This document shows, one piece after another, positions 26,120-49,189 of a stretch of DNA of 49,963 bases; positions within the stretch are counted from its first letter, which is position 1, and each line of letters begins with the position of its first letter. The notes beneath the pieces are model-generated. The model was not told the origin of the DNA. It did no database searches and saw only the letters and a list, made by a program, of their open reading frames with translations. Location of the stretch: contig DATHWI010000117.1 in NCBI GenBank assembly GCA_035460805.1, forward strand, positions 1 to 49,963, in the 5' to 3' direction. The position numbers and the translations under genes are program-made. This DNA comes from Verrucomicrobiia bacterium. GTDB lineage: Bacteria > Patescibacteriota > UBA1384 > CAILIB01.

Positions 26120-26148
26120 ATTGTATGACGAGGGGAAATAAAATGCAA
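26120..26148 (-). promoter_or_regulatory. Candidate sigma70 promoter of the 26069-22205 operon
   Basis: Minus strand reads TTGCAT (complement of 26143-26148), exactly 17 nt, then TACAAT (complement of 26120-26125). Inverted repeat CAATAGC (26146-26152) / GCTATTG (26170-26176) overlaps the -35. Confidence 0.55.
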
Positions 26149-26198
26149 TAGCGCGGTAGGGGCAAAGCTGCTATTGTGCCAATTATCAGATATGGAGG

Positions 26199-26798: not shown

Positions 26799-26804
26799 AT
26801 TAGC

Positions 26805-26832
26805 GAGGCACCCATAGGGTGCCTCTTTTTTT
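26805..26832 (+). terminator. Rho-independent terminator
   Basis: Stem GAGGCACCC (26805-26813) pairs with GGGTGCCTC (26817-26825), loop ATA, then TTTTTTT. Confidence 0.8.
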
Positions 26833-26844
26833 ATTTGCTACACT

Positions 26845-26930
26845 AGGAATAGCTCCGTGCGCTCAGAACTGCGTTTTGCGCAAAACAGACGCGCAAAGCC
26901 GATCATTCTTCGCTGCACATAGCTATTCCT
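26845..26930 (+). promoter_or_regulatory. Nested inverted repeats immediately upstream of the ATL gene
   Basis: Perfect 10-bp arms AGGAATAGCT (26845-26854) and AGCTATTCCT (26921-26930) enclose a perfect 14-bp palindrome GTTTTGCGCAAAAC (26873-26886). The right arm ends 1 nt before ATG 26932. Confidence 0.3.
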
Positions 26931-26931
26931 T

Positions 26932-27285
26932 ATGCCCAAATCCCCACTCTACCAAGATATCTACGCCGCTATCCGCACCATCCCTTTTGGGGAGGTGGCT
27001 AGTTATTCCCAGGTTGCCAAATCTGTGGGCTTGCCACGTGGGGCGCAGGTGGTGGGTTGGGCACTAGGGGCACTCTCAGGCCTTGAGAACACAGACATCC
27101 CTTGGTGGCGGGTCATTAATGCCAAGCGCTGGCTTACCATAACAAACAAGCAGGCGGGGCCTGCCGATCAGAAGCTCTGGTTAGAAAAAGAAGGCCGGAC
27201 GGTTACAGAGAAAGAGGGCGTGTTCGTCGTGGACGGGGAAGACTGGTGGGACGCGCCGGTTGTTCCGCCTCGGGGCGCTTTTTAG
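26932..27285 (+). CDS. Alkyltransferase-like (ATL) / MGMT-family DNA-binding protein lacking the acceptor cysteine
   Basis: IPFGEVASYSQVA and PRGAQVVGWAL, with IPWWRVIN where MGMT has PCHRV. Confidence 0.75.
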   Translation: MPKSPLYQDIYAAIRTIPFGEVASYSQVAKSVGLPRGAQVVGWALGALSGLENTDIPWWRVINAKRWLTITNKQAGPADQKLWLEKEGRTVTEKEGVFVVDGEDWWDAPVVPPRGAF

Positions 27286-28510: not shown

Positions 28511-28517
28511 GAAAGGG

Positions 28518-34762: not shown

Positions 34763-36721
34763 GTGAACAGTACTGATCTTTCTCGCGCCTTAGCAAGTGC
34801 GGCCGAGCTGGTGGAAAAAGACGCCACCCTTCTTAATGACGCCCTTTGGGAGTGCATTGCCCGCGAACTTTCGGTGGGAGAGGAAGTGGTTATCGACGGG
34901 CTTGGGCGCTTTTTCACCGTGAAAGAACCCGCCCGCAACGTGGATGGCAAGATAACCTTGCCAAGCATTGAGGTGGAGTTTGAGCCAGCACGCGTGTTGG
35001 CAAAGCATGTAGAAACTGAGATAGAGGCGCATCCGGATTTGTTTGCGGAAGAAATGCCAGATGTACCAGATGAGGATAAGGCTGCCCCTGTGGCCGTTGC
35101 CCAGTCTGCCCCGCCACCTGCACCCAAGCCAGCTTCAGCAGAAGAAGAGTCGCCAAAAGAGAAGCCGTTAGGCAGGGTTTCCCATGTCGAGTTCCTGGAT
35201 ACAAGCAATGTGAAGGTTGACAGGGAAATCCTGGCCCTTCTTCCTGAGCATATTGCCAAGCAGTACAACGTAGTCCCTCTTGACTTGAAAGAGGGGATCC
35301 TGACGGTAGCCATGATTAACCCAGAGGACTTTGATGCCCTCCAGGTCATCCGCAAGGAGTCGGGGCTTGTGGTCAAACCTGCCCTTTCTACTAAGGAGGG
35401 CATTAACGCCATTTTGGACCAGTACACCGGGCTTCAAGCTGAGGTGCAGGAGGTAATTGAGAACTCCGACCTGGGCATTTCCAAGAAGGACTTGGCTGCC
35501 GCCCAAGAAGAGGACATTGACCAGACAAACGACGATGCGCCAACTGCCCATATCGTATATTCGCTCCTGAAGCGTGCTGTGAAAGAAAAAGCTTCGGATA
35601 TCCACATTGAGCCTTACGAAAAGAGGGTGGCAGTCCGTTTCCGTGAGGACGGCGTACTAATGGAGAAGGTGACACTGCCTAAGGAAATCCAGTCTGCAGT
35701 CACCGCGCGTTTGAAGATCCTGGCTAACCTGAAGATTGATGAGCAGCGCTTGCCACAGGACGGCCGTTTCTCCTTGACGATTGAAAAGCGCCAGGTAGAT
35801 TTCCGTTTCTCAACCATCCCGGTGGTGTACGGCGAAAAGATCGTAATGCGTATCTTAGACAAGTCGGTGGGTATCTTGGAGCTTGAGCAGGTAGGCCTGA
35901 CTGGGTACGGCTTTGACATCCTCTCCAAGAACTTGCGCCGCAGCCACGGCATGATCTTGGTCACCGGGCCTACGGGTTCTGGTAAAACCACCTCGCTGTA
36001 TGCTGTCTTGGGTAAGATGATGGCGCCGGACGTAAACATCCTGACGCTGGAAGACCCGGTGGAATACCGTATTGAGAGTATTAACCAGAGCCAGGTCCAT
36101 AGTGCCATTGGCTATACCTTTGCTTCTGGTTTGCGTGCCATTGTCCGCCAAGACCCGGACATTGTGATGCTTGGTGAAATCCGCGACCAAGAAACCGCAG
36201 ACATGGCCATCCACGCTGCGCTTACGGGACATATTGTACTTTCTACACTTCACACCAATGATGCAGCCGGTGCGTTTCCCCGCCTGATTGACATGGGCAT
36301 TGAGCCGTTCCTCATCACTAGTTCCGTGCATACCGTTATCGCGCAGCGCCTTACCCGGAAGATCTGTGAAGACTGCAAAGAGGAGCTTCACTTGTCCAAA
36401 GAGGAGATGGCGGAAATTGACGAGGAAATTGCCCGCATGCCTAAGGATGTCCGCGAGGCAATCAAGGACAAGCGCACCCTCTACCATGGCAAGGGCTGTG
36501 ATTCATGCGGCGGCAAGGGCTACAAGGGCCGCCTCGGTGTATTTGAGGTTTTGGATGTTACCGAACCGGTGCGTGACCTTGTGTTGAAGCGCTCCAGCGG
36601 ACTTACCATAACCGAGGAAGCAATCAGCAACGGCATGGTTACCATGGTGCAGGACGGCATCCTGAAGGCGCTTAACGGCGATACTACTATCTCAGAAGTC
36701 TGGCGGGTCACACGAGAATAA
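34763..36721 (+). CDS. pilB: Type IV pilus assembly ATPase PilB (GspE family) with N-terminal HU-fold domain
   Basis: T2SSE_N-type domain (ILALLPEHIAKQYNVVPLDLKEGILTVAM). GPTGSGKTTS, DPDIVMLGEIRD, GHIVLSTLHTNDA, tetracysteine CEDC...CDSCGG. The first ~88 aa are HU-like (see findings). Confidence 0.9.
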   Translation: MNSTDLSRALASAAELVEKDATLLNDALWECIARELSVGEEVVIDGLGRFFTVKEPARNVDGKITLPSIEVEFEPARVLAKHVETEIEAHPDLFAEEMPDVPDEDKAAPVAVAQSAPPPAPKPASAEEESPKEKPLGRVSHVEFLDTSNVKVDREILALLPEHIAKQYNVVPLDLKEGILTVAMINPEDFDALQVIRKESGLVVKPALSTKEGINAILDQYTGLQAEVQEVIENSDLGISKKDLAAAQEEDIDQTNDDAPTAHIVYSLLKRAVKEKASDIHIEPYEKRVAVRFREDGVLMEKVTLPKEIQSAVTARLKILANLKIDEQRLPQDGRFSLTIEKRQVDFRFSTIPVVYGEKIVMRILDKSVGILELEQVGLTGYGFDILSKNLRRSHGMILVTGPTGSGKTTSLYAVLGKMMAPDVNILTLEDPVEYRIESINQSQVHSAIGYTFASGLRAIVRQDPDIVMLGEIRDQETADMAIHAALTGHIVLSTLHTNDAAGAFPRLIDMGIEPFLITSSVHTVIAQRLTRKICEDCKEELHLSKEEMAEIDEEIARMPKDVREAIKDKRTLYHGKGCDSCGGKGYKGRLGVFEVLDVTEPVRDLVLKRSSGLTITEEAISNGMVTMVQDGILKALNGDTTISEVWRVTRE

Positions 36722-36722
36722 T

Positions 36723-37928
36723 ATGGCTACCTACCAGTACAAGCTCCGCACGCCGGAGGGAAAACTTGAGAAGGGGACACTGCAAGGCGGTTCGCAATCC
36801 GACGCCCTGCTTAAGGTTAAAAAGCTGGATGGCATCCTTATCTCTCTAGAAGAGGTAAAGGAATCCACCTCGTTTGCCGCGGGGTTTTTCCGAGGAAAAA
36901 TCAGCCTCAAGGACCGCATTATCCTGACAGAGCAGCTGGCAGTCATGTTGAACGCCGGCATTACCCTGGTACAAGCGCTACGGAGCCTGGAAGAAGAGTC
37001 TTCCAACAAGGCCTTGAAGCATGTCCTCTCGCACTTGGTGACGGATGTCCAAGGCGGGGTGCAGTTCTCCTACGCCTTAGAGAAGCACCCTAAAGTCTTT
37101 TCCAACATCTTTATTCAGATGGTCCGCTCTGCGGAGAAGACGGGCAACCTGGCAGAAATCCTGAACAAACTGACAGTGCAGCAGCAGAAAGAGTACGAGC
37201 TGCGGGGGAAGGTCCGCGGTGCGCTTATGTACCCAGCAATTGTCAGCATCCTCATGATTGGTGTCATTGTGCTGGTTATTACGTTCATCCTGCCAAAGCT
37301 TACCGGCATGTTTGTGGATTCCGGGCAGGATCTTCCCGCTAGCACCCGCTTCCTGATGGCTCTCTCCAGTCTCATGACCCATCAGTGGTACCTGTTCATC
37401 ATTGCAATAGGTGGCCTGACGGTGGGCGCAAAGCTCTTGGTGCGCAACCCGCGTGGCCGTTTGCTGTGGGACACCTTTAAACTTCGTATACCGGTATTGG
37501 GCTCATTCATGAAAAAATCATGTATGGCCAGGTTTTCCCAAAGCTTTGGATCGCTTGCCCAAGCTGGGGTGCCGGTATTAGAGGTGTTTCAGACTGTGAA
37601 AGGGGTGGTTGGCAACTCGCTCTACGAGCAGGAAATTGAAAAAATTTCCAAAGATGTTGCCAACGGTATCAAGGTTTCGGTGGCCATCAGGAAGAGCAAG
37701 CACTTCCCCGCTATGATTGGCCAGCTTGTGGCGGTGGGTGAGCAGTCCGGGGACCTGGCTGGCATTTTCAAAGTGCTAGGCGATTTCTTCGAGAAAGAGG
37801 TGGATGGAATGGCGAAAAACCTCTCAACATTGCTTGAGCCGGTTATTATGATTGTGATGGGTGTGGTGATTGGTTTCATCCTGGTTTCTGTACTCCAACC
37901 TATCTACGGGTTGGTGAATGCCGTTTAA
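36723..37928 (+). CDS. pilC: Type IV pilus platform protein PilC (T2SS F family)
   Basis: Two T2SSF repeats, three TM segments, 401 aa. Starts 1 nt after the pilB stop. Confidence 0.9.
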   Translation: MATYQYKLRTPEGKLEKGTLQGGSQSDALLKVKKLDGILISLEEVKESTSFAAGFFRGKISLKDRIILTEQLAVMLNAGITLVQALRSLEEESSNKALKHVLSHLVTDVQGGVQFSYALEKHPKVFSNIFIQMVRSAEKTGNLAEILNKLTVQQQKEYELRGKVRGALMYPAIVSILMIGVIVLVITFILPKLTGMFVDSGQDLPASTRFLMALSSLMTHQWYLFIIAIGGLTVGAKLLVRNPRGRLLWDTFKLRIPVLGSFMKKSCMARFSQSFGSLAQAGVPVLEVFQTVKGVVGNSLYEQEIEKISKDVANGIKVSVAIRKSKHFPAMIGQLVAVGEQSGDLAGIFKVLGDFFEKEVDGMAKNLSTLLEPVIMIVMGVVIGFILVSVLQPIYGLVNAV

Positions 37929-37951
37929 GACCGTATACTGAAAGGGAAGTT

Positions 37952-38926
37952 ATGGGGCTCTTTGGATCCAACCAAGTTGTGGGCATTGATCTGGGCTATG
38001 CGAGTATTCGCGTGGTTGGACTTTCGCTTGGGAAAAAGCCCTCGGTGAGCGGTTGTGCGGAGATACCAGTGGATGCCAAGCTTCTTCAAAAAGATGCGCT
38101 TGAGCAGCCAGCTGAGGTGGCGAAGGCATTGAAAGAGGCTTTGAAATCGGCAACGCCGCACGCGGTGAAGACGAAAGAGGCCTATGTGACGGTTGGTGAG
38201 TCTTCCGTGTTTCGGAAGATCCTAGAAATTCCGCGGAATGTGAAGGATTCTGAATTGGATGCAGTGGTTCGTTCGGCGATTGTAGAGTTTCTTCCTGATG
38301 ACTTGGATAACTTGGAGCTTGATTACCAGCCTTTGGCTACTCCACAGGATACTGAGCATCAGCAGATGATGGTTGTGGCGGTGAGTAAGAAGTCCATAGA
38401 GCAGTATTTGAACCTTTGTGAGTTGGCTGGACTTACTGTGCGGGCAATTGAGCCGAGACCATCGGCTCTTTTGCGTTCAGCAATTGGCCCAAAGCTCAGG
38501 GAGCCAATTGTGGTGATTGATGTTGGTTCGGAGATCAGTACCTTGGCATTGTGTGCGGACCAGTCCGTATGGGTTGCCAGTGCGGTGACAGCGGGAAGTA
38601 ATATGCTTGTGGATTCCGCAACTGGCCAGGTTGATGAGGACAAGCGTGCAGAGAAGACGAAGCGGTTGGTGGGTATGTTGACTGATGAACTTGACCACGT
38701 GGTCAAGTTCTATACCAACCGCGCAAGCTTCTCTGCCGCTGCCGTTAAAGAGGTGCGCCTTTGTGGTAAGGGGTCGTTGATTGAGGGCTTGGATGCTGCC
38801 CTGGCTGCGGCCTGTGATATCAAAGTCACGTATGCCAAGCCAATTGTGGAGCTTCCATCAGGCTTTGACAGAAGGTATATGGGTGCACTGGGTTCCGCGC
38901 TCTATCCAATGTACGAACTGCTATGA
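37952..38926 (+). CDS. pilM: Type IV pilus assembly protein PilM (actin-like ATPase fold)
   Basis: VVGIDLGYASIRVV N-terminal phosphate-1 motif, ~324 aa, positioned directly before pilN. Confidence 0.85.
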   Translation: MGLFGSNQVVGIDLGYASIRVVGLSLGKKPSVSGCAEIPVDAKLLQKDALEQPAEVAKALKEALKSATPHAVKTKEAYVTVGESSVFRKILEIPRNVKDSELDAVVRSAIVEFLPDDLDNLELDYQPLATPQDTEHQQMMVVAVSKKSIEQYLNLCELAGLTVRAIEPRPSALLRSAIGPKLREPIVVIDVGSEISTLALCADQSVWVASAVTAGSNMLVDSATGQVDEDKRAEKTKRLVGMLTDELDHVVKFYTNRASFSAAAVKEVRLCGKGSLIEGLDAALAAACDIKVTYAKPIVELPSGFDRRYMGALGSALYPMYELL

Positions 38927-39495
38927 AACAGTTGAACTTACTTCCCCAAGCAGTACGGCATAAGGCGGCCAACCGGCAGTCTGTACCGTACATGGTGCTG
39001 GCTGGCCTCGTTGGGTTGGCCCTTGGGCTTACCGTTTGGTTTGGGTTCAGCATGGAAGCCCGCTCCCTGGATAAGGAGAAGGAGATGCTCATTGCGGATG
39101 CCACGGCAGCCCAGCAGAAGGCCGCCAAGGAAGTAGCAGACCTTAAGGTCTCAGGAGACCTTAAGACCCGGGTGAACCACCTCAATACATTGGCTCAGGC
39201 CGATGTGGATTGGGATCGTTCCTTCGAGTATGTTGCTTCACTGGTGCCTAAGGACATCGTGCTCTCTTCCTACAGCTTTGGGGTGAGCCAGGGGAATGTA
39301 ACCTTGAAAATGACAGGTGAAGCCCCTTCCAACGTGAGTTACGCAACTTTTGCTGAATACCTTAAACAGAATACGGGTAAGACAGTTACCAGCTTTAAGG
39401 TCGACGGCTATGTGTATGCGCCTCAGACTGGCAAAGTCACATTTACCGTTACAGTGGTTGCCCCGCCCACAGCCGTTAAGTACCCCAAGTCATGA
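38923..39495 (+). CDS. pilN: PilN-like pilus alignment protein
   Basis: N-terminal LNLLPQ motif (the conserved INLLP of PilN), one TM helix, ATGA overlap with pilM. Confidence 0.7.
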   Translation: MKQLNLLPQAVRHKAANRQSVPYMVLAGLVGLALGLTVWFGFSMEARSLDKEKEMLIADATAAQQKAAKEVADLKVSGDLKTRVNHLNTLAQADVDWDRSFEYVASLVPKDIVLSSYSFGVSQGNVTLKMTGEAPSNVSYATFAEYLKQNTGKTVTSFKVDGYVYAPQTGKVTFTVTVVAPPTAVKYPKS

Positions 39496-40097
39496 GGTCA
39501 ATGACGCTTTCCAGTAAGATGCTGCTCTGCTTTGTCCTGCCCTTGGCCGTGGGCTATCACTTCCTGGCGCTTCCCCAGATGAAGAAGACTGCGGAAGCCA
39601 GGGCAAGCGTTAAGGAGCTCCGCCAATCAACAGCGGCCGTTTCAAGTGCCAAGCAGCGTGAGGAATACAGGGCCAAAGCTGTGCAGGTCCAGGAAAAGGC
39701 CCTAGGTCTTATGCCTGTCTCGGATGACCAGTACGACCTTTCCGTGCAGGTAGAGGCCCTGGCCAAGGCTAATAACCTTACTATTGGGGGGCTTACTATC
39801 AACGCTGCTGCGGCCACTGTGCTTCCCAAGACTACACCTCCAAAGGATGATGTCCCCACTACAACCACGGCTGCGGCAACCCCGGTTGCGACGGCTGCGC
39901 CATCGAGTAGCGGACCGCTTAAGGTACAGGTTACGGCCAGTGTCGTAGGTGGTTATGCCGATACTAAGAAGTTTGTGACCGGCCTTACTACGCTGGAACG
40001 GTTTGTCCAGGTTGACCAAGTTTCAATCACAGCAGCTGCAGATGGTAGGCTGACCACGTCCATTGTGGCCAGCGCATACTATCTTCCTGCCCAGTAG
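39492..40097 (+). CDS. pilO: PilO-like pilus alignment protein
   Basis: N-terminal TM, coiled-coil segment, C-terminal ferredoxin-like part (VTASVVGGYADTKKFVTGL). 4-nt overlap with pilN. The call is mainly positional. Confidence 0.55.
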   Translation: MRSMTLSSKMLLCFVLPLAVGYHFLALPQMKKTAEARASVKELRQSTAAVSSAKQREEYRAKAVQVQEKALGLMPVSDDQYDLSVQVEALAKANNLTIGGLTINAAAATVLPKTTPPKDDVPTTTTAAATPVATAAPSSSGPLKVQVTASVVGGYADTKKFVTGLTTLERFVQVDQVSITAAADGRLTTSIVASAYYLPAQ

Positions 40098-40106
40098 GTG
40101 ACACAT

Positions 40107-40418
40107 ATGCCTAAACAAACCCCCACTACCCCTGAATCGCAAGCCAAAGCTGCTCCGGTCCCTACCCGTAAGGACAAGAAGCAGTTCAGCGTGTCGCCAG
40201 CCTTGCTCACCCTGCTCTGTGTGGCGGGTGTGGTTGGTTACCTTGCCTTTGCCAGCTGGCAGGCCCTCACGGCCACTCCAGCAGCCGGTGGAGCGCCACT
40301 CGTAGCCGCTACGCCCCCCGTTCCCCAGCTCAAGCTGAATGGGGACAACAAGCGGTCTGTGCCAGATATATCCGTGGACGAAAAGGCCATTGGCAAGGAC
40401 AACCCCTTCGTGAAATAG
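40107..40418 (+). CDS. Small Pro/Ala-rich single-TM protein, last gene of the pilus operon
   Basis: LLTLLCVAGVVGYLAFASW TM segment. GTG 40098 is an alternative start. Followed by a strong terminator. Confidence 0.5.
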   Translation: MPKQTPTTPESQAKAAPVPTRKDKKQFSVSPALLTLLCVAGVVGYLAFASWQALTATPAAGGAPLVAATPPVPQLKLNGDNKRSVPDISVDEKAIGKDNPFVK

Positions 40419-40432: not shown

Positions 40433-40462
40433 CCCGGTAGGGGAGTTTTTTTGTGGGGCACT
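40433..40462. terminator. Bidirectional terminator between the pilus operon and the response-regulator gene
   Basis: AAAAAACTCCCC (40434-40445) pairs with GGGGAGTTTTTT (40450-40461), loop GGTA (40446-49). A and T runs lie on both sides. Confidence 0.8.
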
Positions 40463-40871
40463 AGGCGTTAACTTCGCCTTCTGGGGCAACTTCCCGGTTG
40501 AGGCGGGTTTTGACCTGTTCAATAATCTCTGCCGGCAAGACTTCTGACTTTACGATGTAGGCATCGGCTGGGTTCATCATCTTGTTGATCTTCTCAATTT
40601 CCTGAACCAGTGCGGTCACGATGATGACAGGGATGTTCTTGGTCTCAGGGTTTTCCTTGAGGGCCTTAAGCACGTCGAGGCCGTTCATCTTAGGCATCAT
40701 GATGTCCAAGATAATGAGTGACGGGTTGTACTCAGTCACCATCTTAAGGGCATCTTCACCGTTATTGGCGTGAACTACCGTAAAGCCTTCCTGCTTGAGG
40801 CGGTCGGTGTACAGCTCGGCCAGGATAACGTCATCTTCGGCAAGCAGGATAGTGGTACCTTCGTAGGCCAT
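40461..40871 (-). CDS. Stand-alone CheY-like response regulator (receiver only)
   Basis: ILLAEDDVIL, LIILDIMMPKMNG, IIVTAL and AYIVKS (DD / D / T / K set). 136 aa with no output domain. Confidence 0.9.
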   Translation of the reverse strand: MAYEGTTILLAEDDVILAELYTDRLKQEGFTVVHANNGEDALKMVTEYNPSLIILDIMMPKMNGLDVLKALKENPETKNIPVIIVTALVQEIEKINKMMNPADAYIVKSEVLPAEIIEQVKTRLNREVAPEGEVNA

Positions 40872-40937: not shown

Positions 40938-43112
40938 CTAAACCATGGTTGAGGTTTCAACCTTAAAGAGGGGAAGGATAAACGAGAAGGTGCTGCCTTT
41001 GCCCACTTCGCTCTTTACCGTAATGGCACCGCCCATCTTCTCGATGATTGACTTGGTGATGTACAAACCTAGCCCTGTCCCTACTATGCCTGTGGTCTCA
41101 GGTGTATCTACCCGGTAGAACTGGGTAAAGAGGTGCTGCATGTTGGCCTTGGACATACCAATACCGGTATCGGAGATGGCAGTAGTCATGTAGCCGGCCT
41201 TTTTATCGATACTGAGGGTAATGGTAAGGCCGCCTTGTTTGGTGTATTTGATAGAGTTGCTTACCAGGTTGACGAGTACCTGCATGGTGCGGTCTGGGTC
41301 GGCCCAGACAGGTGGGCACTCGGAAGGCGGGTTGTAGGAAATAGTCAGGTTCTTGTCAGCCGCCATAAAGCGGAGCTGGTCGATGGTGTCGTTGACCATT
41401 TTGTTCATGTCCAGCTGCTGCGGGTCAATCTTCATCTTCCCAGATTCAATGCGGGAAACGGACAGCAGGTCTTTGATGAGGAGGGAGAGGCGCCGGGCCG
41501 AAGTGTACACCTTGGTGAGGTAGTCGCGGGCCTTGTCATCTACCTGCCCGATGTTTTCATCCAGGATCATGGAGAGATAGCCTTCAATGGCAGAGATTGG
41601 CGTGAGTAGCTCGTGTGAGGCAATGGAGACGAACTCGCTCTTCATCTGGTCACCCTCGTACAGCTTGGCCTTTTGGATGGAAGAAATGGCTTGGCCTCCT
41701 ACTACCTCCAAAAGGGAGAGGTCTTCATGGGAATAGCTTTCACCATTCAGCTTTTCTGAAAGCATAATGAGACCAATGGCTTGCCCGTTTAGGTGAAGGG
41801 GAACGGCTACGGCAGTGTCCAGCGAGGTGAGCTTTTGGTAGACGGCCTGCTTAATGGCGTGGGCGCGGACTGCTTGGCCATCGCCATTCTTTTTAGAGAG
41901 CGCTTCCTCGCGTTCCAGTTCCAGTTGCATGTCGCGCACCAAGGCGGTGGCGGGGTGTTCTGCAAAATATGACACGGTGAAATCGCGGTCTTCCAAGAAG
42001 AGTTTGGCCGAAGAGCTGTATCCCACCTGCTTCACGCGCTTTACCGCAAAGCCGTTGTTCTCGGCAGGCTGGAAGACGTACGTAACCGCATGCTTGAGGT
42101 GCAGGACCTTCACAATGGTCTGCATCACAATCTCCAAGGCTTCATCTAACGCAATGACATCGTTGAGCTTTTTGGACAGGTCCCTAATAACCACTTGTTG
42201 CTCGTACTCCTTCTTGAAGAGCCACTTGTCAGTGCGCTCCGAAATGAAGTTGCGCATAGGTTCAAAGGAGAACCCAACGGCAATGGCGGCGGCCAGGTTG
42301 ATGGCATAGCCTCGAATGGAGGTTGCTTCTTCCTGGAAGAGGCGGGAGAGCAGGACGATGACGGCGGTGTAAACAACAAAGCTGAAGGCAACGAGCGCCG
42401 TAAAGATAACGGTGCGCTTGATGACCAGCCGGATATCAAAGAGATGGTGCGCCACAATGGCATATGCCGTGATAAACACGAACAAGAGGGAGAGGTACGG
42501 GGCTACCGGCAAGAGGGAGGTGATGCCCAGTAGGTTTACAAAGACAAAGTTGGTGATGAACGCCACTACATAACTAAGCCCTACTGCGCCCATAAGGTAC
42601 TGGAGCTGGGTACGTCGCGCACCATGGGCGGCCTTGGCGCGACGGATGATGATATAGACCGAGGCAATGAGGAAGCCAAGGTTGGCTAACCCATAGACGG
42701 GGATGAGTGTCCCCGGTGTGACCTCCACATTGGTCCCCGTGCCTACAATGCTGGAGAACACGTACGGGGTTTGGGTGAGGGCAATCACCGCCGCTGTCCC
42801 CAGTCCCAAAAGGACCAAGGAGAAAGGCTTGATAGTAAGCTGGTTCCCAGGGAAGGTGCTCACCGTCAGGAGTACGCAGAAGGAATAGAGGATGCCGGCA
42901 CCCAGCTCCCAGCGGGCAAAGTGAAGCGTATCAAGGGAGGTTGCCTGGGTAAGGGAGAGGTAGTTGGCAATGGTCCAAAAAGCAGCAGCGCTCGTTAGGA
43001 GGAAGAATGTCCAGTTCGTGGCGCTCTTAGGCTTAAAAAGCAATACGAAAAAGCCTGTGAAGAGATTGGCAGCGACTGCCGCAATGACCAGTAATAAGTT
43101 GAGCCCCACCAT
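40938..43112 (-). CDS. Sensor histidine kinase: N-terminal 7TM-type membrane domain, GAF, HisKA, HATPase_c
   Basis: About 7 TM helices, then a GAF-like block (LDEALEIVMQTIVKVL...GLIMLSEK). H-box FVSIASHELLTPI. N/G boxes LVSNSIKYT, DTGIGM, GTGLGLYITK. Confidence 0.9.
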   Translation of the reverse strand: MVGLNLLLVIAAVAANLFTGFFVLLFKPKSATNWTFFLLTSAAAFWTIANYLSLTQATSLDTLHFARWELGAGILYSFCVLLTVSTFPGNQLTIKPFSLVLLGLGTAAVIALTQTPYVFSSIVGTGTNVEVTPGTLIPVYGLANLGFLIASVYIIIRRAKAAHGARRTQLQYLMGAVGLSYVVAFITNFVFVNLLGITSLLPVAPYLSLLFVFITAYAIVAHHLFDIRLVIKRTVIFTALVAFSFVVYTAVIVLLSRLFQEEATSIRGYAINLAAAIAVGFSFEPMRNFISERTDKWLFKKEYEQQVVIRDLSKKLNDVIALDEALEIVMQTIVKVLHLKHAVTYVFQPAENNGFAVKRVKQVGYSSSAKLFLEDRDFTVSYFAEHPATALVRDMQLELEREEALSKKNGDGQAVRAHAIKQAVYQKLTSLDTAVAVPLHLNGQAIGLIMLSEKLNGESYSHEDLSLLEVVGGQAISSIQKAKLYEGDQMKSEFVSIASHELLTPISAIEGYLSMILDENIGQVDDKARDYLTKVYTSARRLSLLIKDLLSVSRIESGKMKIDPQQLDMNKMVNDTIDQLRFMAADKNLTISYNPPSECPPVWADPDRTMQVLVNLVSNSIKYTKQGGLTITLSIDKKAGYMTTAISDTGIGMSKANMQHLFTQFYRVDTPETTGIVGTGLGLYITKSIIEKMGGAITVKSEVGKGSTFSFILPLFKVETSTMV

Positions 43113-43128: not shown

Positions 43129-44139
43129 CTACTCACCCGCAATGCTCGATACTGTGCGCCTAGGGGATTGGTGGGTAAACGAGGGATCCTGAGGAAAACC
43201 TATCCTAAAAGTGAGTTGCGGCCGGCCTTCCGTTGCAAGAAGGCGCTTCATACGGGGGACAAACGGCGGGATCTCGGTAGGGGCAGCCGCAATGCAATGG
43301 GCAAGGCCCAGGCTGGCCGCCAGGTTGAGGAAACGCTGGACGGTGCGCCCAACTGCCAACCAGGACGGCATGTCGTCCTGAGGTGTACTGACTACCACGA
43401 TGAGGGGCGTAGAGCGGAACTTCTCGTAGGCAAAGCGGGCCTCACCGGGGATGTCTATGCCGTTAAGGATGAACTGCTCTCCTGTTTCGCTTGGGACGGG
43501 GTTCTTCACCATGGCCTTCACGAGCATGCCAACGGTACTATCTTCCTTTTCCCACTTCACAAACCTGGCCAGCTCGCGCCGGAGGCCTGGCATGGTGACG
43601 GCGGTGCGGAGGCCACGGCCTGCCATCTCCGCAATTTGTTCCTTGTCTTCAACAGAATCGATGAAATGAAGGGTTACATTCTCTTCCCGAGGCATATCGC
43701 CAAGGGTTTTGAGTGTAGTTTCTGCCAGCGGTTCCGGCTGGTAGAGGCCGCGGTTGGTGTGCCGTTTTGTCATGCCGGTAAAGGCGGGGTTGTCACTTTT
43801 TGCGCCAGCCCATGTCACGGTAAGTGGAATTTCCAATTGGCTTAGTGGGACGGAGAGGGGAATTTTGCCCATGTGCACAGCAAAACCAAAGTGCTCGGCG
43901 GCGCAGGCGAAGTTTTCCACGAAAGCACCCAGTGATACTGTGGTGAGTCGAGGTATTCCAGCGGTAGCTAGTTCCAGGTTTGGACGTACAATTATGCCAT
44001 CTTCCAAAATGGCCACATCCCATGGCTGGTTGTTGTGTGCGGAGGGCGCAAGGGCGGCAAATTGCAGCCAAAAACTGAGCTTTTCACGCAGTGTCCATCC
44101 CTCATTGTACGCATCTACGTCAAAATCCCAGGCGCTCAT
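43129..44139 (-). CDS. Acg-type double-length nitroreductase-fold protein
   Basis: LAPSAHNNQPW near the N-terminus, 336 aa, nitroreductase-like pattern through to the C-terminus. 16-nt gap to the kinase gene. Confidence 0.8.
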   Translation of the reverse strand: MSAWDFDVDAYNEGWTLREKLSFWLQFAALAPSAHNNQPWDVAILEDGIIVRPNLELATAGIPRLTTVSLGAFVENFACAAEHFGFAVHMGKIPLSVPLSQLEIPLTVTWAGAKSDNPAFTGMTKRHTNRGLYQPEPLAETTLKTLGDMPREENVTLHFIDSVEDKEQIAEMAGRGLRTAVTMPGLRRELARFVKWEKEDSTVGMLVKAMVKNPVPSETGEQFILNGIDIPGEARFAYEKFRSTPLIVVVSTPQDDMPSWLAVGRTVQRFLNLAASLGLAHCIAAAPTEIPPFVPRMKRLLATEGRPQLTFRIGFPQDPSFTHQSPRRTVSSIAGE

Positions 44140-45308
44140 AGGGGATCCTCCAGGCGGTTAAAGATGAGGTCAAAGCCAAGGTCAAATTCGTCAGTCAAAC
44201 GCTGCCGTTCAGCCGTTGCCTTGGAGGAATTGAAGCTTGGGTCAATGTCGCGGTCAAAGTGTACCGTGTAACGGCCGGATGGCATCTCTTCGCCGGTCAG
44301 AATGCGCCGTGCGGTATAGCTGGTGGCTGCCCCGGAGAGAATGGCGGCGTTGCCTAGCTGGGGCCACGAGGGCAGCGTTTGGCCTACCTGCATGAGGGAG
44401 TACTGGGTGCGAGGGGTGATATCTGAACCAACAATGGCGCTGGCCAGTTTTACCTTTTCAGAGTTAGGCATGGTGGCGCTTGCCCGGCTAAGGAGTTCCT
44501 CGTCTGCACGCCCGTGGAAGAGAGGCCGGTCTGGCTCCAGGTCAAAGCGCTCCACATCGATAATAGTGTTGTCCCCGTTGTCTGTGGCCATGATTACAGG
44601 CACGCCCAGCTCCCGTGCTTTGCGACGGGTAAGCACCTTGAGAAGGATGTCATCCACCTCTTCAATGAAAAGATCTAGTTTGCCACCTTCAACAAAGAAA
44701 GCATCCAGCTTTTCTTCGGTGACACCATCCCAGAAGGGCACCAGCTCTGCGTAGGGGTTAATCTCATAGACCCGCCGCATGGCGGCAGTCAGCTTGGGAA
44801 CCGTCAGGTCACACACAGAACCAAAGAGGCGGTTCAGGTTGGTGATGGACAGGGTGTCGTGATCGGCCAGGCGAAGGTGCTTGCCGCCTCCGGAAAGGAC
44901 GAGGGCATTCAGGACGGACGAGCCCACGCTCATGCCTGCAATGCCAATCTTTGCGCCGTAGAAAGCCCGTTGCTCCTCTTCTGTGATGAGGAACTTGTTG
45001 CGTGCAGTACGGAGCTCGTGGAAGGTTTCTTCATCTGGCAGGTGAACCAGGGTGTTCTTCCAGGGAAAGTAGGCCCATTGGGATTTTTCTTCCACCTGAG
45101 GGGCGCCCCAGGCATCCGTATCCCAAGCGGCGCGGGTTGCCTTGGCTTCGGAAGAGCCAGGCATGAGGTGGGGGAAGCGGATCTTAAAGAGGTCATCCAG
45201 CGCTTCAGGCATGGCCTCAATGACCAGCGGCGCATGTTCCTCCTTGAGGGCAGCTAGCGCCGGGTCATCCACACGGTAGAATTGTGGCGTTACTGCTTGC
45301 TGGTCCAT
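44136..45308 (-). CDS. ThiF/MoeB/E1-like adenylyltransferase-fold protein with N-terminal extension (Rv1355c N-half-like)
   Basis: IGIAGMSVGSSVLNALVLSGGGKHLRLADHDTLSITNLNR (nucleotide-binding loop plus DxD..NLNR). ATGA overlap with the nitroreductase gene. Confidence 0.8.
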   Translation of the reverse strand: MDQQAVTPQFYRVDDPALAALKEEHAPLVIEAMPEALDDLFKIRFPHLMPGSSEAKATRAAWDTDAWGAPQVEEKSQWAYFPWKNTLVHLPDEETFHELRTARNKFLITEEEQRAFYGAKIGIAGMSVGSSVLNALVLSGGGKHLRLADHDTLSITNLNRLFGSVCDLTVPKLTAAMRRVYEINPYAELVPFWDGVTEEKLDAFFVEGGKLDLFIEEVDDILLKVLTRRKARELGVPVIMATDNGDNTIIDVERFDLEPDRPLFHGRADEELLSRASATMPNSEKVKLASAIVGSDITPRTQYSLMQVGQTLPSWPQLGNAAILSGAATSYTARRILTGEEMPSGRYTVHFDRDIDPSFNSSKATAERQRLTDEFDLGFDLIFNRLEDPL

Positions 45309-46720
45309 CGGTGTTTGATCTTTATCTCAAATTCCGGGGCGCCATAAGCCAAGAGGTGGATGCGTGGCCGGGCCTTGGCTCCCATTTCGCTGTAGAGCTT
45401 GTTGTACTCGCTGTTGTACTTACGCAGGCTGCCCATGACGGCTTCTTGTATCTCAAACGCCAGTGACTCGCTCTGTTTCTTGTCGCGCCGGAGCTCCACA
45501 TAGAGGTGGAGGGTCTGGTTCTGCTTGCGGTCGTACTCGCTGCGCAAGACAAATTTTCCGGTAATACGTTCCTGGAGCTCGTGACTCTCTAGTCCATATT
45601 TAATGTTCTCCGGAAAGATATCGAGGGCGTAAAAGGTGGTGGAAACATCGGAGCGGCCGTAGAGTGCCAGGTATTGGTCATAGCCGTGTGCCTGGATAAG
45701 GTCTGCGGGTATTTCTATGTCAGATTCAGCCAGGGCAGCCGTCAGCTCCTCTCCTGTAATAAGGCGGCCTTCGTCGTTGATCTTGTACCTAATGAGCGGC
45801 ATGGCGTTGTCCGCAGTAAAGAGAAGGTAGTTCTTGTTGGTCTCAAAGTAGCGCATGTCCGGTCGGTAGCCCACCAGCGTTGGAAGGAGGGTTGCCTGAG
45901 GGAAGAGGCTTTTCATGAGGGCCTCATTTTCTACGATTTTCCGGCGGGCAAAGATGGAGAACGGATTCTCAAATCCCATGATCCCGGCATCGGCCGTACC
46001 GTAAATGCCTACCGAGGCGGTGATGTCGTTCTGCTTGCCAATCTTCTTCAAGACATAATCCCGCCACATTTCCGAGTAGTTCTCGCCGGCAAAGAGGAGG
46101 GAGACATTGAGGGTAGTGAGGGGTGCGCCTGCCTCTTCCGCATCGTCCAGCACGTCTTTGACAAAGGGAGGGTACCCAGCAATGACGGTACGCTCAAAGT
46201 GAGGAGCCAGGTTCTTGAGGATGTGGATGATCTCACCCTTGTTGATGCCAGGGGTGACCAGGGAGATGTGGTGGTCTTCTTCGGCCAGCTTAAGAATTCC
46301 GGTGAACATGTAGGTGCCGGCAATCCAGGTGCCCATGGCGTACGCAATAATGACCAGTGTTTTCTCTTCGTGGGACTTATAGCTTGTCCGGAAGAGGGTG
46401 TTGTTGAGTTCAACGGATTGGCGGGTGGCAATGTCGTTCCTAAACCAGAAAGAGGGCGTGCCGCTGGAGCCGGAACTCATGGAGACCACATGGCCCGTGG
46501 TAACATCGCCATCTTTTAGGAGATCAGGAAGGGGGTACGCTTTGAGGTAGTTCTCCTTGGTGACAGGGGGGACAACCGAAAAGTCCTCGGGAGTGGTCAC
46601 CTTTTCCGGGTCAATGCTGTTCTTTACCAAAAAGTCACGGTACGCAGGTACCCTGGTAGCTGCTTCTTGAAATGTAGCCAGTGCCTCAGCAAAACCAGCA
46701 GGATGCGGATTCGTTTTCAT
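45290..46720 (-). CDS. PaaK/CapK/F390-synthetase-like adenylate-forming (ANL) enzyme
   Basis: VSMSSGSSGTPSFW (P-loop-like AMP motif), YGTADAG, PLIRYKINDEG. Start uncertain: ATG 46720, 46753 or 46804. 19-nt overlap with the ThiF-like gene. Confidence 0.8.
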   Translation of the reverse strand: MKTNPHPAGFAEALATFQEAATRVPAYRDFLVKNSIDPEKVTTPEDFSVVPPVTKENYLKAYPLPDLLKDGDVTTGHVVSMSSGSSGTPSFWFRNDIATRQSVELNNTLFRTSYKSHEEKTLVIIAYAMGTWIAGTYMFTGILKLAEEDHHISLVTPGINKGEIIHILKNLAPHFERTVIAGYPPFVKDVLDDAEEAGAPLTTLNVSLLFAGENYSEMWRDYVLKKIGKQNDITASVGIYGTADAGIMGFENPFSIFARRKIVENEALMKSLFPQATLLPTLVGYRPDMRYFETNKNYLLFTADNAMPLIRYKINDEGRLITGEELTAALAESDIEIPADLIQAHGYDQYLALYGRSDVSTTFYALDIFPENIKYGLESHELQERITGKFVLRSEYDRKQNQTLHLYVELRRDKKQSESLAFEIQEAVMGSLRKYNSEYNKLYSEMGAKARPRIHLLAYGAPEFEIKIKHRWTSKQ

Positions 46721-46813
46721 GAGTACTTTAAGCGTACGGGATAAAGGGGTCATAGGGCAATTGTCATCCACTTTCTTTTGTCTGCGGGTACCTTCTGCTA
46801 GCATGAGAGAACT

Positions 46814-47785
46814 ATGTCCCGAATCGTTACTGGTATCCAATCTACGGGGAACATTCACCTCGGAAACTACATTGGCGCAATGCGCCCTTTTGTGGAGCTG
46901 CAGAATTCCCACGAATGCTTTGTCTTCGTGGCCGATTTGCATGCGTTGAACGGTGTCCATGATCCCAAGGTGCTGCAAGAAAATGTCATGGTTATTGCCA
47001 AGGCCTACCTGGCCGTAGGCCTAGACCCTGAGAAGGTGACTATCTTCCGCCAATCAGCAGTTCAGGAGCATGCGGAGCTGGCAGTGATACTGGCGCCTTT
47101 CACTAGTCATGGTCTTTTGGAGCGTGCGCATGCCTACAAGGATGCGGTGGCCAAGGGGAAACCGGTGAATGCCGGCCTCTTCTACTACCCTGTGCTTATG
47201 GCTGCCGATATTTTGCTCTACAAACCTGAACTTGTTCCCGTTGGGGCAGATCAACAGCAGCACTTGGAAATGACGCGTGAGATAGCGGAGCGGTTCAACC
47301 ATGTGTATGGCGAGACCTTCCCGCTTCCCAAGGCGCACCTTATGGGCAGCGAAGAGCACATCCTCAAGGGGTTGGATGGCCGCAAAATGTCCAAGAGCTA
47401 CGATAATGTGATTGGTATTTTTGATGCACCAGACATTATCCGCCAGAAAGTGGCCCGTATTGTGACAGACTCCAAGCGGCCAGAGGAACCAAAGGACCCT
47501 GCCACAGATACGCTCTTCTCCATCTACCGGCATGTGGCCAGCCCTGAGGCAGTGGCAGAGCTCTACGAGCGGTACACACAGGGCGGAATAGGGTATAAAG
47601 AGGCAAAGGACCTGCTGGCGGAGGCTGTCATTGCCTATGTGGCACCCATGCAGGCCAAGAAAGCCGAGCTGGACCAGGATGAAGACGGGGTACGGGCAAT
47701 TTTGGAGAATGGCGCAATGAGGGCACGCGCAGTGGCTGAACAAACCGTGAGGGAAGTAAAGGAGAAAATCGGTCTCCTACCGTAA
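46814..47785 (+). CDS. trpS: Tryptophan-tRNA ligase
   Basis: TGIQSTGNIHLGNYIGA (HIGH region), KMSKS present as RKMSKSY, 323 aa. Confidence 0.9.
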   Translation: MSRIVTGIQSTGNIHLGNYIGAMRPFVELQNSHECFVFVADLHALNGVHDPKVLQENVMVIAKAYLAVGLDPEKVTIFRQSAVQEHAELAVILAPFTSHGLLERAHAYKDAVAKGKPVNAGLFYYPVLMAADILLYKPELVPVGADQQQHLEMTREIAERFNHVYGETFPLPKAHLMGSEEHILKGLDGRKMSKSYDNVIGIFDAPDIIRQKVARIVTDSKRPEEPKDPATDTLFSIYRHVASPEAVAELYERYTQGGIGYKEAKDLLAEAVIAYVAPMQAKKAELDQDEDGVRAILENGAMRARAVAEQTVREVKEKIGLLP

Positions 47786-47794
47786 CGTTTACGT

Positions 47795-49189
47795 ATGTCA
47801 ACAGAACCGCGCCGCCGCTTCGAAAAGAAGGAAGAGGTACCGCGTGGGCCAATAATTGGCCGCATGCCGCCTCAAAACCTGGACGCCGAGATCTCCACAC
47901 TTGGCGCCCTCCTTCTCGATACAGAAGCCATCATGAAGGTGGTGGATTTGTTGACCCCGGAAGATTTTTACCGCCCAGATCACGGCCAGATTTATGCCGC
48001 CATGCAGTCTTTGTTTGAGAAGCGGACCCCTATGGACCTGGTTACTGTGGCCGGAGAACTGGAGCGTAACAAGAAGCTGGATGAAGTAGGGGGCATGGCC
48101 AAGCTTTCGAGCCTAGTTAGCTCGGTGGCAACTGCTGCCAACATTGTCCACTACGCTACCATTGTCCGGGAAAAAGCGTTGTTGCGCCGCCTCATTGGCG
48201 CTGCCGGCACTATTGGTGAACTTGGTTTCCAGGAAGAGCTGGAAGTGGACGCCCTGCTTGATACCGCAGAGCGCACGCTCTTTGGTATTACGCAGCGTTT
48301 CCTGAAACAGAACTTTATCTCCGTACGGTCTATCTTGGATGATTCCTTTGAGCGTCTCGGCATGCTTGCCAAGCAGGACGGTGCCTTGCGGGGTATTCCT
48401 ACGGGTTTTCGACAGCTGGACCGGCTCCTTGGCGGCTTGCAGCGTTCGGATTTGCTTATCATTGCCGCCCGCCCGTCCATGGGTAAAACGGCTTTTGTAA
48501 TGAACATTGCAGAGCACGTAGCGGTGCAGGAGAAGAAAACCGTGGGCATTTTCTCCCTGGAAATGAGCAAGGAGCAGCTGGTGGACCGCCTTATTTCTTC
48601 CATGGGAAGAGTGGACTCTTGGAAACTGCGCAATGGCCAGCTTTCGGAGGACGACATGTCCAGCCTTATCCAAGCCCAGGCCCAACTGGCAGAAGCCAAC
48701 CTCTTTATTGACGATGCCCCGATGGCTTCTGTTATGGAGGTGCGCGCCAAAGCCCGTCGGCTGCAGTCTGAGCATGGCCTAGACCTGATCTGTATCGACT
48801 ACTTGCAGCTCATGGTGGGTAGTGCCAAGAACCAGGACAACCGCGTACAGGAGGTATCCGAGATCTCCCGCTCCCTTAAGGCCTTGGCTAAGGAGCTGAA
48901 CTGCCCCGTCATTGCGTTGTCGCAGCTTTCCCGTGCCGTGGAGGCTAGGAATGACAAGCGCCCGATGCTTTCGGACCTGCGTGAGTCAGGATCCATTGAG
49001 CAGGATGCTGACGTGGTCATGTTCTTGTACCGTGAGGACTACTATAACAAGAACCGCGAAGAGCACTCCAACTTGCTGGAAGTGATCATTTCTAAACACC
49101 GCAACGGCCCCACGGGGGATGCCAAGCTTTCTGCGCAGCTGCAGCACAGTCGTTTTTACGACATAGACCTACGTTCTGATTCTCATTAG
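47795..49189 (+). CDS. dnaB: Replicative DNA helicase DnaB
   Basis: PPQNLDAEISTLGALLLD N-terminus, Walker A ARPSMGKTAF, IDYLQLM, ALSQLSR, DADVVMFLYR. No intein-sized insertion. Confidence 0.9.
   Translation: MSTEPRRRFEKKEEVPRGPIIGRMPPQNLDAEISTLGALLLDTEAIMKVVDLLTPEDFYRPDHGQIYAAMQSLFEKRTPMDLVTVAGELERNKKLDEVGGMAKLSSLVSSVATAANIVHYATIVREKALLRRLIGAAGTIGELGFQEELEVDALLDTAERTLFGITQRFLKQNFISVRSILDDSFERLGMLAKQDGALRGIPTGFRQLDRLLGGLQRSDLLIIAARPSMGKTAFVMNIAEHVAVQEKKTVGIFSLEMSKEQLVDRLISSMGRVDSWKLRNGQLSEDDMSSLIQAQAQLAEANLFIDDAPMASVMEVRAKARRLQSEHGLDLICIDYLQLMVGSAKNQDNRVQEVSEISRSLKALAKELNCPVIALSQLSRAVEARNDKRPMLSDLRESGSIEQDADVVMFLYREDYYNKNREEHSNLLEVIISKHRNGPTGDAKLSAQLQHSRFYDIDLRSDSH

Follow-up and report, generated by a model that had tools for sequence, protein, structure and literature searches.

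Within a 49,963-nucleotide (nt) stretch of contig DATHWI010000117.1 (assembly GCA_035460805.1), referred to here as the window, three consecutive open reading frames (ORF1, ORF2 and ORF3; Table 1) encode a PaaK-fold ligase, a ThiF-like enzyme and a nitroreductase-superfamily oxidase, and they are followed by a histidine kinase gene. We give about an even chance to the reading that this trio carries out the acyl-oxazolone (tyrazolone/tryptazolone) pathway in a form that depends on a ligase. The production of acyl-oxazolones by a ThiF cyclase and a flavin-dependent oxidase is already known from OxzAB, TyzACB and TrzAS. What is most likely new is a putative ligase-dependent, split oxazolone-type module, widespread in candidate-phyla-radiation bacteria and coupled to a seven-transmembrane (7TM) sensor kinase.

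Three acyl-oxazolone systems have been described. OxzAB of Pseudoalteromonas rubra (2021) synthesises N-acyl oxazolones (de Rond et al., bioRxiv 10.1101/2020.06.11.147165), TyzACB of M. tuberculosis (2023; Rv2336/Rv2337c/Rv2338c) yields C12:0-tyrazolone (PMC10404671), and TrzAS (Rv1356c-Rv1355c) of M. tuberculosis, M. smegmatis and Rhodococcus jostii synthesises N-acyl tryptazolone (Journal of Biological Chemistry, December 2025; PMC12856293). In all three, Tyr, Phe or Trp first receives an acyl group from acyl-coenzyme A (CoA) through an N-acyl amino acid synthase, and a ThiF-like ATP cyclase and then a nitroreductase-superfamily O2 desaturase follow (PMC12856293, PMC10404671, bioRxiv 10.1101/2020.06.11.147165). 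Rv1355c, which is TrzS, performs an ATP-dependent cyclisation and then an O2-dependent desaturation of N-acyl tryptophan, the desaturation requiring prior cyclisation (PMC12856293); TyzB/TyzC and OxzB use the same cyclise-desaturate chemistry on N-acyl Tyr/Phe (PMC10404671; bioRxiv 10.1101/2020.06.11.147165). No description of a PaaK-like partner was found in the literature on oxazolone systems, and each described system has an acyltransferase. Acid and methanol are destructive to oxazolones (PMC12856293). The initial annotation of the window had called the Rv1355c/MoeY family functionally unassigned, which is outdated by the work on TrzS (PMC12856293) and OxzB (bioRxiv 10.1101/2020.06.11.147165). 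It had also left substrate and product open; their class can be predicted from the acyl-oxazolone chemistry of OxzAB, TyzACB and TrzAS.

In the proposed pathway, ORF1 would use ATP to activate a carboxylic acid and would attach this acid to an amino acid through the amino group, so that an N-acyl amino acid results; the carboxylic acid may be an arylacetate or an amino-acid-derived 2-oxo or 2-hydroxy acid. ORF1 would thereby replace the acyltransferase OxzA/TyzA/TrzA. ORF2 would then adenylate the free carboxylate of this intermediate, and attack by the amide oxygen would close a five-membered oxazolone ring. The family membership of ORF2 is shown below, and the chemistry of this second step is inferred from TrzS, TyzB and OxzB. 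Finally, ORF3 would use flavin mononucleotide and O2 to desaturate the C-alpha/C-beta bond, by analogy with TyzC and the oxidase domain of TrzS. A role of the kinase as a sensor linked to the product is proposed; alternatively, the kinase may control the module. The idea that a small acid is activated, then cyclised and oxidised had been put forward from the three ORFs alone, and it matches the biochemistry known for the ThiF/oxidase pair.

In Pfam, residues 107-242 of ORF2 matched the ThiF family (E 1.4e-15). Its best NCBIfam match was the Rv1355c family NF005901 (E 3e-93, 313 bits, model positions 23-349 of 722), and the next-best ThiF-type model scored 70 bits. It is 44% identical over 296 amino acids (aa; E 4e-70) to the ThiF half of an Rv1355c-family protein from a Rhodococcus qingshengii plasmid, and all conserved blocks are common to the two proteins. 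Among 37 homologues, residues R100/R103/N104, G125-S127-G129, R146, D151, N159-R160, K172 and E216-D219 were invariant or nearly so, and the motifs kept comprised an arginine-finger region, the glycine-rich loop GxSxG, RLAD.D, NLNR, K172 and EExDD. D219 may be the counterpart of D217 in TrzS. The AlphaFold model (predicted local distance difference test score, pLDDT, 91.9) superimposed on AclA, ThiF and MoeB across about 260 C-terminal residues in Foldseek. ORF2 is a predicted ThiF-like, ATP-dependent cyclase of the TrzS/TyzB/OxzB clade. Its best structural match, AclA of Tenacibaculum discolor (PDB 9EGB, released 2025), is a ThiF-type protein solved with its substrate, and may bear on the chemistry of the ORF2 clade.

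A reading in terms of primary metabolism, with ORF2 as a MoeB/ThiF/TcdA-type adenylyltransferase, ORF1 as a catabolic PaaK and their clustering incidental, deserves hardly any credence. Some homologues are named 'molybdopterin/thiamine biosynthesis adenylyltransferase' or 'tRNA threonylcarbamoyladenosine dehydratase', and there are weak matches to the corresponding models. However, ORF2 reached 24-48 bits with the MoeB/ThiF sulfur-carrier adenylyltransferase models, whose cutoffs are 152-376 bits (ThiF 47.6 vs 159, MoeB 24 vs 376), and 25 vs 304 bits with TcdA; ORF1 reached 37-39 bits with PaaK models that require 646-700. ORF2 thus groups with Rv1355c/TrzS and not with the MoeB/ThiF equivalogs. 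Its translation has one Cys in total and no CxxC motif, so that it lacks both the CxxC zinc site and the catalytic cysteine loop of sulfur-carrier/E1 enzymes. No ThiS/MoaD-like, thi, moa or paa genes were found in the window, and the clustering survives gene-order permutation and gene fusion, as described below.

ORF3 matched Pfam Nitroreductase and aligned over its full length with M. smegmatis Acg (PDB 2YMV). Its best model was the Acg family NF047509, at 174.7 bits over the full length, which is under the family cutoff of 199. It also aligned with positions 381-567 of the Rv1355c model (71 bits) and was 24% identical (E 6e-8) to the oxidase domain of the Rhodococcus Rv1355c-family protein. 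In 22 aligned sequences, S33, N36, Q38, P39, W40, R126, R130, G204 and G264 were invariant, as were the FMN-type motifs APSxxNxQPW and RxxxR, which ORF3 has in common with the Rv1355c-family oxidase domain. A flavin-dependent oxidase of the nitroreductase superfamily is thus found directly adjacent to the ThiF gene, with a 4-nt overlap. The NF005901 equivalog describes a single ThiF-plus-oxidase protein of about 720 aa scoring at least 476 bits; in the window the genes are split, with 313 bits for ORF2 and 71 bits for ORF3. ORF2 and ORF3 are, as far as sequence can tell, a split version of the TrzS cyclase/oxidase pair. The initial annotation had recognised a split Rv1355c-like pair accompanied by a PaaK-type adenylating enzyme, an assignment that Pfam, NCBIfam, Foldseek and pairwise alignment supported.

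ORF1 had no match in Pfam and gave weak PaaK/F390-synthetase matches in NCBIfam. The two PaaK equivalog models (TIGR02155 / NF041878) require 646 and 700 bits, whereas ORF1 reached 36.7 and 38.6 bits with them, and there are no paa genes in its neighbourhood; a catabolic PaaK, which the initial annotation had named as part of an outcome that would count against its proposal, is therefore not what ORF1 resembles. The AlphaFold model (pLDDT 89.6) nevertheless displayed the PaaK-type two-domain adenylating fold with its Ser/Gly-rich phosphate loop. Foldseek matched it to PaaK1/PaaK2/BT_0428 at E ~1e-20 (4e-21 to 2Y27), with TM-scores of 0.64-0.70 to PaaK2 2Y4O and BT_0428 4R1L; weaker matches included the 2-hydroxy-acid ligase HCL, ClxA and the amide synthetase McbA. 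Fold and SSGSxG loop are common to ORF1 and the PaaK-family enzymes (PaaK1/2 2Y27/2Y4O, BT_0428 4R1L, HCL 6HE0, ClxA 9S45), whereas identity is 15-17%, the equivalog thresholds are far off and the paa context is missing. ClxA we take to be a PaaK-like enzyme that makes ester or amide bonds without CoA. Within the ORF1 family, SSGSxG, K389 and K469 were invariant (39 homologues aligned). An exhaustive HMMER scan of 1.84 billion cluster representatives returned just 497 at E<=1e-30. ORF1 belongs to a small family of its own that lacks a Pfam model and whose current name, 'phenylacetate-CoA ligase family', is probably misleading. In homologues that have no ThiF partner (Sorangium, cyanobacteria, Nonomuraea, Methylococcaceae) the neighbours are not conserved across taxa; those in Nostoc are Ser/Thr kinases and a TetR regulator.

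Relatives of ORF1 were collected from one genome per GTDB species, which yielded at least 584, and the best 80 were analysed. Recurring gene families were counted by tblastn and ORF clustering of 25 module-carrying loci (individual loci are numbered with the prefix L and proteins with P). The ligase recurred in 25 of 25 loci, the ThiF-like gene in 24, the oxidase in 21 and the histidine kinase in 20, and the next family was present in 4. The trio is thus conserved as neighbours, a point that the initial annotation had asked to be checked. Four gene orders were observed: ligase-ThiF-oxidase, ThiF-ligase-oxidase, oxidase-ThiF-ligase and ligase-oxidase-ThiF. The hosts included Saccharibacteria, Paceibacteria, Yanofsky-, Nomura-, Terry- and Kaiserbacteria and two metagenome-assembled genomes (MAGs) labelled Gammaproteobacteria. 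In Streptomyces the three enzymes are present but the kinase is not. Nocardia and Gordonia carry ligase and ThiF with no detectable oxidase, which fits an order in which cyclisation comes first and desaturation is optional. Ligase-ThiF fusions exist in both orders (P0364, ThiF-ligase; P0432, ligase-ThiF). Because the neighbours recur in 25 independent loci and fused ligase-ThiF proteins exist, the trio neighbourhood is far beyond chance.

The fusions also bear on an alternative in which ORF1 is an ordinary acyl-CoA (for example arylacetyl-CoA) ligase that feeds an N-acyl amino acid synthase encoded elsewhere, while ORF2 and ORF3 act as in the known pathway. The top structural matches of ORF1 are all CoA ligases, sources annotate its family as phenylacetate-CoA ligases, and the known oxazolone systems use acyl-CoA donors. 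We consider this alternative clearly unlikely, since direct fusion of ligase and ThiF argues for consecutive steps with nothing between them, ORF1 falls far short of the PaaK equivalog cutoffs, and no acyltransferase-like gene recurs in the 25 clustered loci or is present in L098, L100 and L101. An adjacent N-acyltransferase of the FeeM/acylhomoserine lactone (AHL)-synthase-like type, in particular, was found neither in the window nor among the recurring families. Little CoA and fatty-acid metabolism is also general in Patescibacteria. For the proposed ligase step there are precedents in ClxA and McbA, named above among the structural matches, and in OlsH of Singulisphaera, a GH3-like adenylating N-acyl ornithine synthetase that stands in for the acyltransferase OlsB (PMC12493201). 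As proposed for ORF1, an adenylate-forming enzyme there replaces an acyltransferase and an N-acyl amino acid is made with ATP; OlsH differs in belonging to the GH3 branch rather than the PaaK-like one, in serving a membrane-lipid pathway and in having no ThiF or oxidase partners.

Several loci have genes beside the module for enzymes that convert between amino acids and 2-oxo acids. An amino-acid dehydrogenase gene lies directly upstream of the ligase in L009, L027 and L081, a class I/II aminotransferase gene in L026, L038, L051 and L061, and an IlvE-type aminotransferase gene in L098. In two assemblies, P0413 (1242 aa) is a triple fusion of a Glu/Leu/Phe/Val dehydrogenase, the ligase and ThiF; the oxidase gene precedes it, and an alpha/beta hydrolase and a HisKA_7TM kinase follow. 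The repeated recruitment of such unrelated enzymes indicates that the pathway would act on free amino-acid-derived small molecules. The earlier proposal of either a peptide or a small acid as substrate is accordingly kept for the small acid, while the peptide as an equal option is disfavoured by the aminotransferase and dehydrogenase genes and by the dehydrogenase-ligase-ThiF fusion.

The same genes could also point to a different product. Here the ligate-cyclise-oxidise logic would be retained, with ORF1 coupling to an amino acid a 2-oxo or 2-hydroxy acid that the accessory dehydrogenase, aminotransferase or reductase had derived from an amino acid. Ring closure by ThiF would give another heterocycle, such as a six-membered morpholinedione or pyrazinone-type ring, and the oxidase would aromatise it. 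This reading has a real, if small, share of our belief. At least 10 loci have an amino-acid dehydrogenase or aminotransferase gene immediately before the ligase gene or fused to it. HCL, a 2-hydroxy-acid ligase, ranks among the top structural matches of ORF1, and the known products of ThiF-like enzymes include lactones, imides and thiolactones besides oxazolones (PMC12596934). A gene of the short-chain dehydrogenase/reductase (SDR) type is divergent from the ligase in L003, L004 and L014 and bears the precomputed tag 'Beta_methylindole_red_C', but a local Pfam scan did not give that tag. The accessory genes, moreover, are absent from the window and from many loci and may merely supply the amino acid, and the closest characterised ThiF relatives are all oxazolone makers.

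In two loci the ligase is absent and the ThiF gene has another partner. An Acidimicrobiales MAG (L099:5943-8772) has a GNAT-like gene, a same-clade ThiF gene (4-nt overlap) and a metallo-beta-lactamase-fold hydrolase, and a Streptomyces plasmid (L087:3830-6727) has MerR, a same-clade ThiF and GNAT. The pairing with a GNAT-type acyltransferase where the ligase is missing would fit a non-orthologous replacement of the first step, and the ORF2-clade ThiF enzymes seem to take part in several uncharacterised pathway variants.

A system acting on ribosomally synthesised and post-translationally modified peptides (RiPPs) or on protein tails was also weighed. ORF2, like MccB, PaaA, GrcB or EnfB, would adenylate a peptide C-terminus or side chain, ORF3 would be a SagB-type dehydrogenase and ORF1 would add an acyl cap. 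Pairs of an E1-like enzyme and a flavin dehydrogenase are known from azole-forming RiPP systems. The ThiF core of ORF2 is preceded by an N-terminal domain of about 100 aa, and the longest Foldseek alignments of ORF2, of about 345 columns vs about 260 for ThiF/MoeB, were to MccB and PaaA at a root-mean-square deviation above 10 A; these alignments may reach into the N-terminal domain of the model. That region is, however, partly common to the small-molecule Rv1355c family, whose model position 23 aligns to ORF2 residue 14. Both the accessory genes and the domain fused in P0413 belong to the metabolism of free amino acids, and the module genes are packed almost without gaps. A six-frame, all-vs-all comparison of the 25 loci revealed no conserved ORF of 12-70 aa within the modules or 700 nt around them, apart from matches between two nearly identical loci. 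The window has no YcaO, no protease and no dedicated transporter, none of these recurred in the 25 loci, and the YcaO cyclodehydratase with precursor peptide that marks azole-forming RiPP systems was seen neither in the window nor in related loci. These searches upheld the earlier observation that a GG-ending carrier, a YcaO and a precursor peptide are lacking, and they make the RiPP-like reading improbable.

Comparison with the three known systems returns us to the acyl-oxazolone reading. TrzAS is similar in that the ThiF part of TrzS belongs to the same NCBIfam family as ORF2, the partner oxidase is of the nitroreductase superfamily, and the expected order is cyclisation (ATP) and then desaturation (O2). 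Both also have a signalling neighbour, namely c-di-GMP genes in M. tuberculosis, a GGDEF gene on the Rhodococcus plasmid and the histidine kinase here. In contrast, cyclase and oxidase form one protein of 720-730 aa in TrzAS and are encoded by separate, translationally coupled genes in the window; ORF3 is 24% identical to the Rhodococcus oxidase domain and has a higher score with the Acg model; in place of the acyltransferase TrzA there is a PaaK-fold ligase; and the hosts are mycolic-acid actinobacteria rather than a Patescibacteria-type bacterium. TyzACB shares the three-gene operon, with a stand-alone ThiF (TyzB), a stand-alone oxidase (TyzC) and a third enzyme for the N-acyl amino acid. 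Its TyzA is a FeeM/AHL-synthase-like acyl-CoA N-acyltransferase, whereas ORF1 is adenylate-forming, and TyzB (318 aa) lacks most of the ORF2 N-terminal extension. OxzAB shares ThiF and nitroreductase-fold chemistry on a small N-acyl amino acid and a product proposed as a labile signal; OxzB is fused, OxzA is an N-acyltransferase, and a ligase or kinase partner is not described there.

Several observations weigh against the ligase-dependent oxazolone pathway. For each of the three steps the proposed chemistry is borrowed from homologues that are 24-44% identical. Every close solved relative of ORF1 (PaaK, BT_0428, HCL) found by Foldseek is a CoA ligase, so ORF1 could simply make acyl-CoA. The Acg/Rv3131 model fits ORF3 better than the oxidase part of the Rv1355c model does (175 vs 71 bits). 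The dehydrogenase/aminotransferase partners, together with the SDR-type gene of L003, L004 and L014, may indicate a 2-oxo or 2-hydroxy acyl unit and a ring other than an oxazolone, and the N-terminal domain of ORF2, with its long MccB/PaaA alignments, may have a peptide-binding role. About half of the best 80 ORF1-family loci have no ThiF neighbour, and these are mostly the more distant members.

In the window, the module genes are closely packed (Table 1). The three ORFs lie where the initial annotation had placed them, on the minus strand, with a 19-nt overlap between ORF1 and ORF2 (45290-45308), an ATGA common to ORF2 and ORF3 (44136-44139, a 4-nt overlap) and a 16-nt spacer between the ORF3 stop and the kinase ATG at 43112, all read from the sequence. 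The motifs that it had listed, SSGSSGTP, IGIAGMSVGSS...NLNR and APSAHNNQPW, are present in the translations. The longest reading frame of ORF1 spans 45290-46978, and its 5' portion overlaps the opposite-strand trpS; the start ATG at 46720 gives 476 aa, and an alternative ATG is at 46753. If the five genes are co-transcribed, the divergent intergenic region 46721-46813 would be the sole possible promoter site of the module. No sigma-70-like site scored there in a scan restricted to that promoter type, the promoter and terminator scan of the window was not above shuffled expectation, and no tRNA or Rfam family was found in the window.

Table 1. Module genes and adjoining features in the window
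Feature	Coordinates	Strand	Remarks
ORF1, PaaK-fold adenylate-forming (ANL) enzyme	45290-46720	minus	476 aa, same length as NCBI protein P0121
ORF2, ThiF-like enzyme of the Rv1355c/TrzS clade	44136-45308	minus	390 aa
ORF3, nitroreductase-superfamily flavin-dependent oxidase	43129-44139	minus	336 aa
Histidine kinase (HisKA_7TM, GAF, HisKA, HATPase_c)	40938-43112	minus	724 aa, Pfam
Receiver-only response regulator	40461-40871	minus	136 aa, Pfam Response_reg as sole domain
Divergent intergenic region, ORF1 to trpS	46721-46813	no strand	93 nt

The conserved unit is larger than the three genes (43129-46720) at which the initial annotation had set its limits, and in Patescibacteria it includes the kinase gene. 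In 20 of the 25 loci, all of them Patescibacteria-type, a kinase homologue follows downstream on the strand of the trio despite the permuted gene order. Where the kinase gene is present it is the last gene on the same strand in nearly every locus, usually after a gap of <110 nt, and a homologue is also downstream of the module in L098, L100 and L101. The linkage of trio and kinase was thus shown to be nearly universal in Patescibacteria loci. In the window, the receiver-only regulator is 66 nt downstream of the kinase gene and is likely its partner; a receiver-domain gene is near the module in 8 of the 25 loci, a less consistent link than that of the kinase.

At the position before the kinase gene, other genes are seen in some loci. 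A protein of 304-310 aa without a Pfam match is encoded between the ligase/ThiF gene and the kinase gene in three Patescibacteria loci (L030:11551-12480, L042:3948-4862 and L076:8453-9385), an alpha/beta hydrolase takes that position in L100 and L101, and a methyltransferase-like gene in L005. No relation was detected between the 304-310-aa protein and the L100 alpha/beta hydrolase.

The kinase is not dependent on the trio. In L088 (L088:1-5331), which is 60% identical for the kinase, 86% for the regulator and 77% for PilB and keeps the pilO-N-M-C-B synteny, the kinase is retained with unrelated small genes in place of the trio, and the trio is therefore an insertion or a deletion relative to the kinase-pil locus. 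L090 and L091 have the kinase alone. L088 weighs against the proposed role of the kinase. When the kinase was taken as the starting point, its N-terminal domains proved too divergent for a pattern search in aligned sets of 20 and of 6; a three-sequence alignment led to 10 loci. In these the kinase family extends beyond the module, and the idea of a kinase type exclusive to the trio was dropped.

A type IV pilus operon (34763-40418, plus strand; pilB, pilC, pilM, pilN, pilO and a 106-aa gene) converges on the response regulator gene. The kinase-regulator-pil arrangement is kept in L088 and L098, which suggests that the kinase-regulator pair could act on pilus function.

The oxazolone papers propose a signalling role for these compounds, c-di-GMP genes adjoin trzAS in M. 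tuberculosis, and the physiological role of oxazolones is described as 'a major unresolved question' (PMC12856293). We tentatively suggest, as an extension that we ourselves regard as unlikely, that the product of the trio is a labile, oxazolone-type cognate signal of the adjacent HisKA_7TM kinase. The two would form a quorum-sensing-like or host-sensing circuit native to candidate-phyla-radiation bacteria, acting in the lineage of the window through the receiver-only regulator beside the type IV pilus operon. Pairs of an autoinducer synthase and a polytopic sensor kinase are known in CqsA-CqsS, LuxM-LuxN and AgrBD-AgrC. As in those pairs, genes for a small hydrophobic molecule would lie beside a multi-pass histidine kinase; the likeness is one of gene placement, however, as there is no sequence relationship and the kinase also occurs here without the trio (L088).

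The genome label was reconsidered as well. The named relatives of DnaB (47795-49189) are from Patescibacteria and Berkelbacteria (72% and 60% identity) and none is from a verrucomicrobium, and the nearest named relatives of the module are Saccharibacteria. For these reasons the label 'Verrucomicrobiae bacterium' is probably wrong and the window appears to derive from a Patescibacteria-type genome. The window also carries a glycogen-metabolism cluster (18284-29822, minus strand) with a phosphorylase-like gene, amylo-alpha-1,6-glucosidase, glycogen synthase, GH57 and a GT4/starch-synthase-like gene.

Some further features were recorded around the related loci. Upstream of ThiF, L018:4375-4479 and L025:6754-6853 share about 100 nt that are conserved in every reading frame. 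This stretch does not encode a tRNA; it could represent a regulatory or RNA element, or the two loci could simply be close relatives. In L001:9137-10119, on a 1-Mb ENA contig, the oxidase gene is apparently in two fragments of about 100 aa, which may represent a pseudogene or an assembly or frameshift problem; the ThiF of this locus belongs to a 381-aa subgroup with many members. A large nSTAND1 NTPase-WD40 protein is encoded immediately upstream of the ligase-ThiF pair in Nocardia (L006:4049-7819, L007 and L010) and on the actinobacterial contig L001 (L001:1-434). In Streptomyces GCA_044329785.1 (L002:10292-15045) the trio adjoins a lasso-peptide cluster comprising Asn_synthase, PqqD, a transglutaminase-like protease, an ABC exporter and a 35-aa DUF5972 precursor. 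A tryptophanyl-tRNA synthetase gene is near the module in the window (46814-47785, plus strand), L029 (16927-17394) and L081 (13428-14375), in unrelated arrangements. As TrzAS uses tryptophan, this adjacency was considered as a hint of a tryptophan substrate and rejected, because 3 cases among about 22 loci do not reach significance when corrected for multiple testing. An anti-phage defence system was likewise rejected, as PADLOC gave generic E1 and HATPase domain matches of 13-25 bits.

The data point to a second, CoA-independent entry into the oxazolone pathway, in which an adenylating ligase takes the place of the acyltransferase, a substitution backed by natural gene fusions. They would also extend an oxazolone-type pathway to Patescibacteria, which are usually credited with almost no specialised metabolism, as well as to Streptomyces and Nocardia. 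The near-constant site of the module upstream of a polytopic sensor kinase offers a handle on whether oxazolones are signals, and the c-di-GMP genes that adjoin actinobacterial trzAS are a parallel case to this kinase link. If the product is indeed the signal of the kinase, this would be the first defined physiological role for oxazolones.

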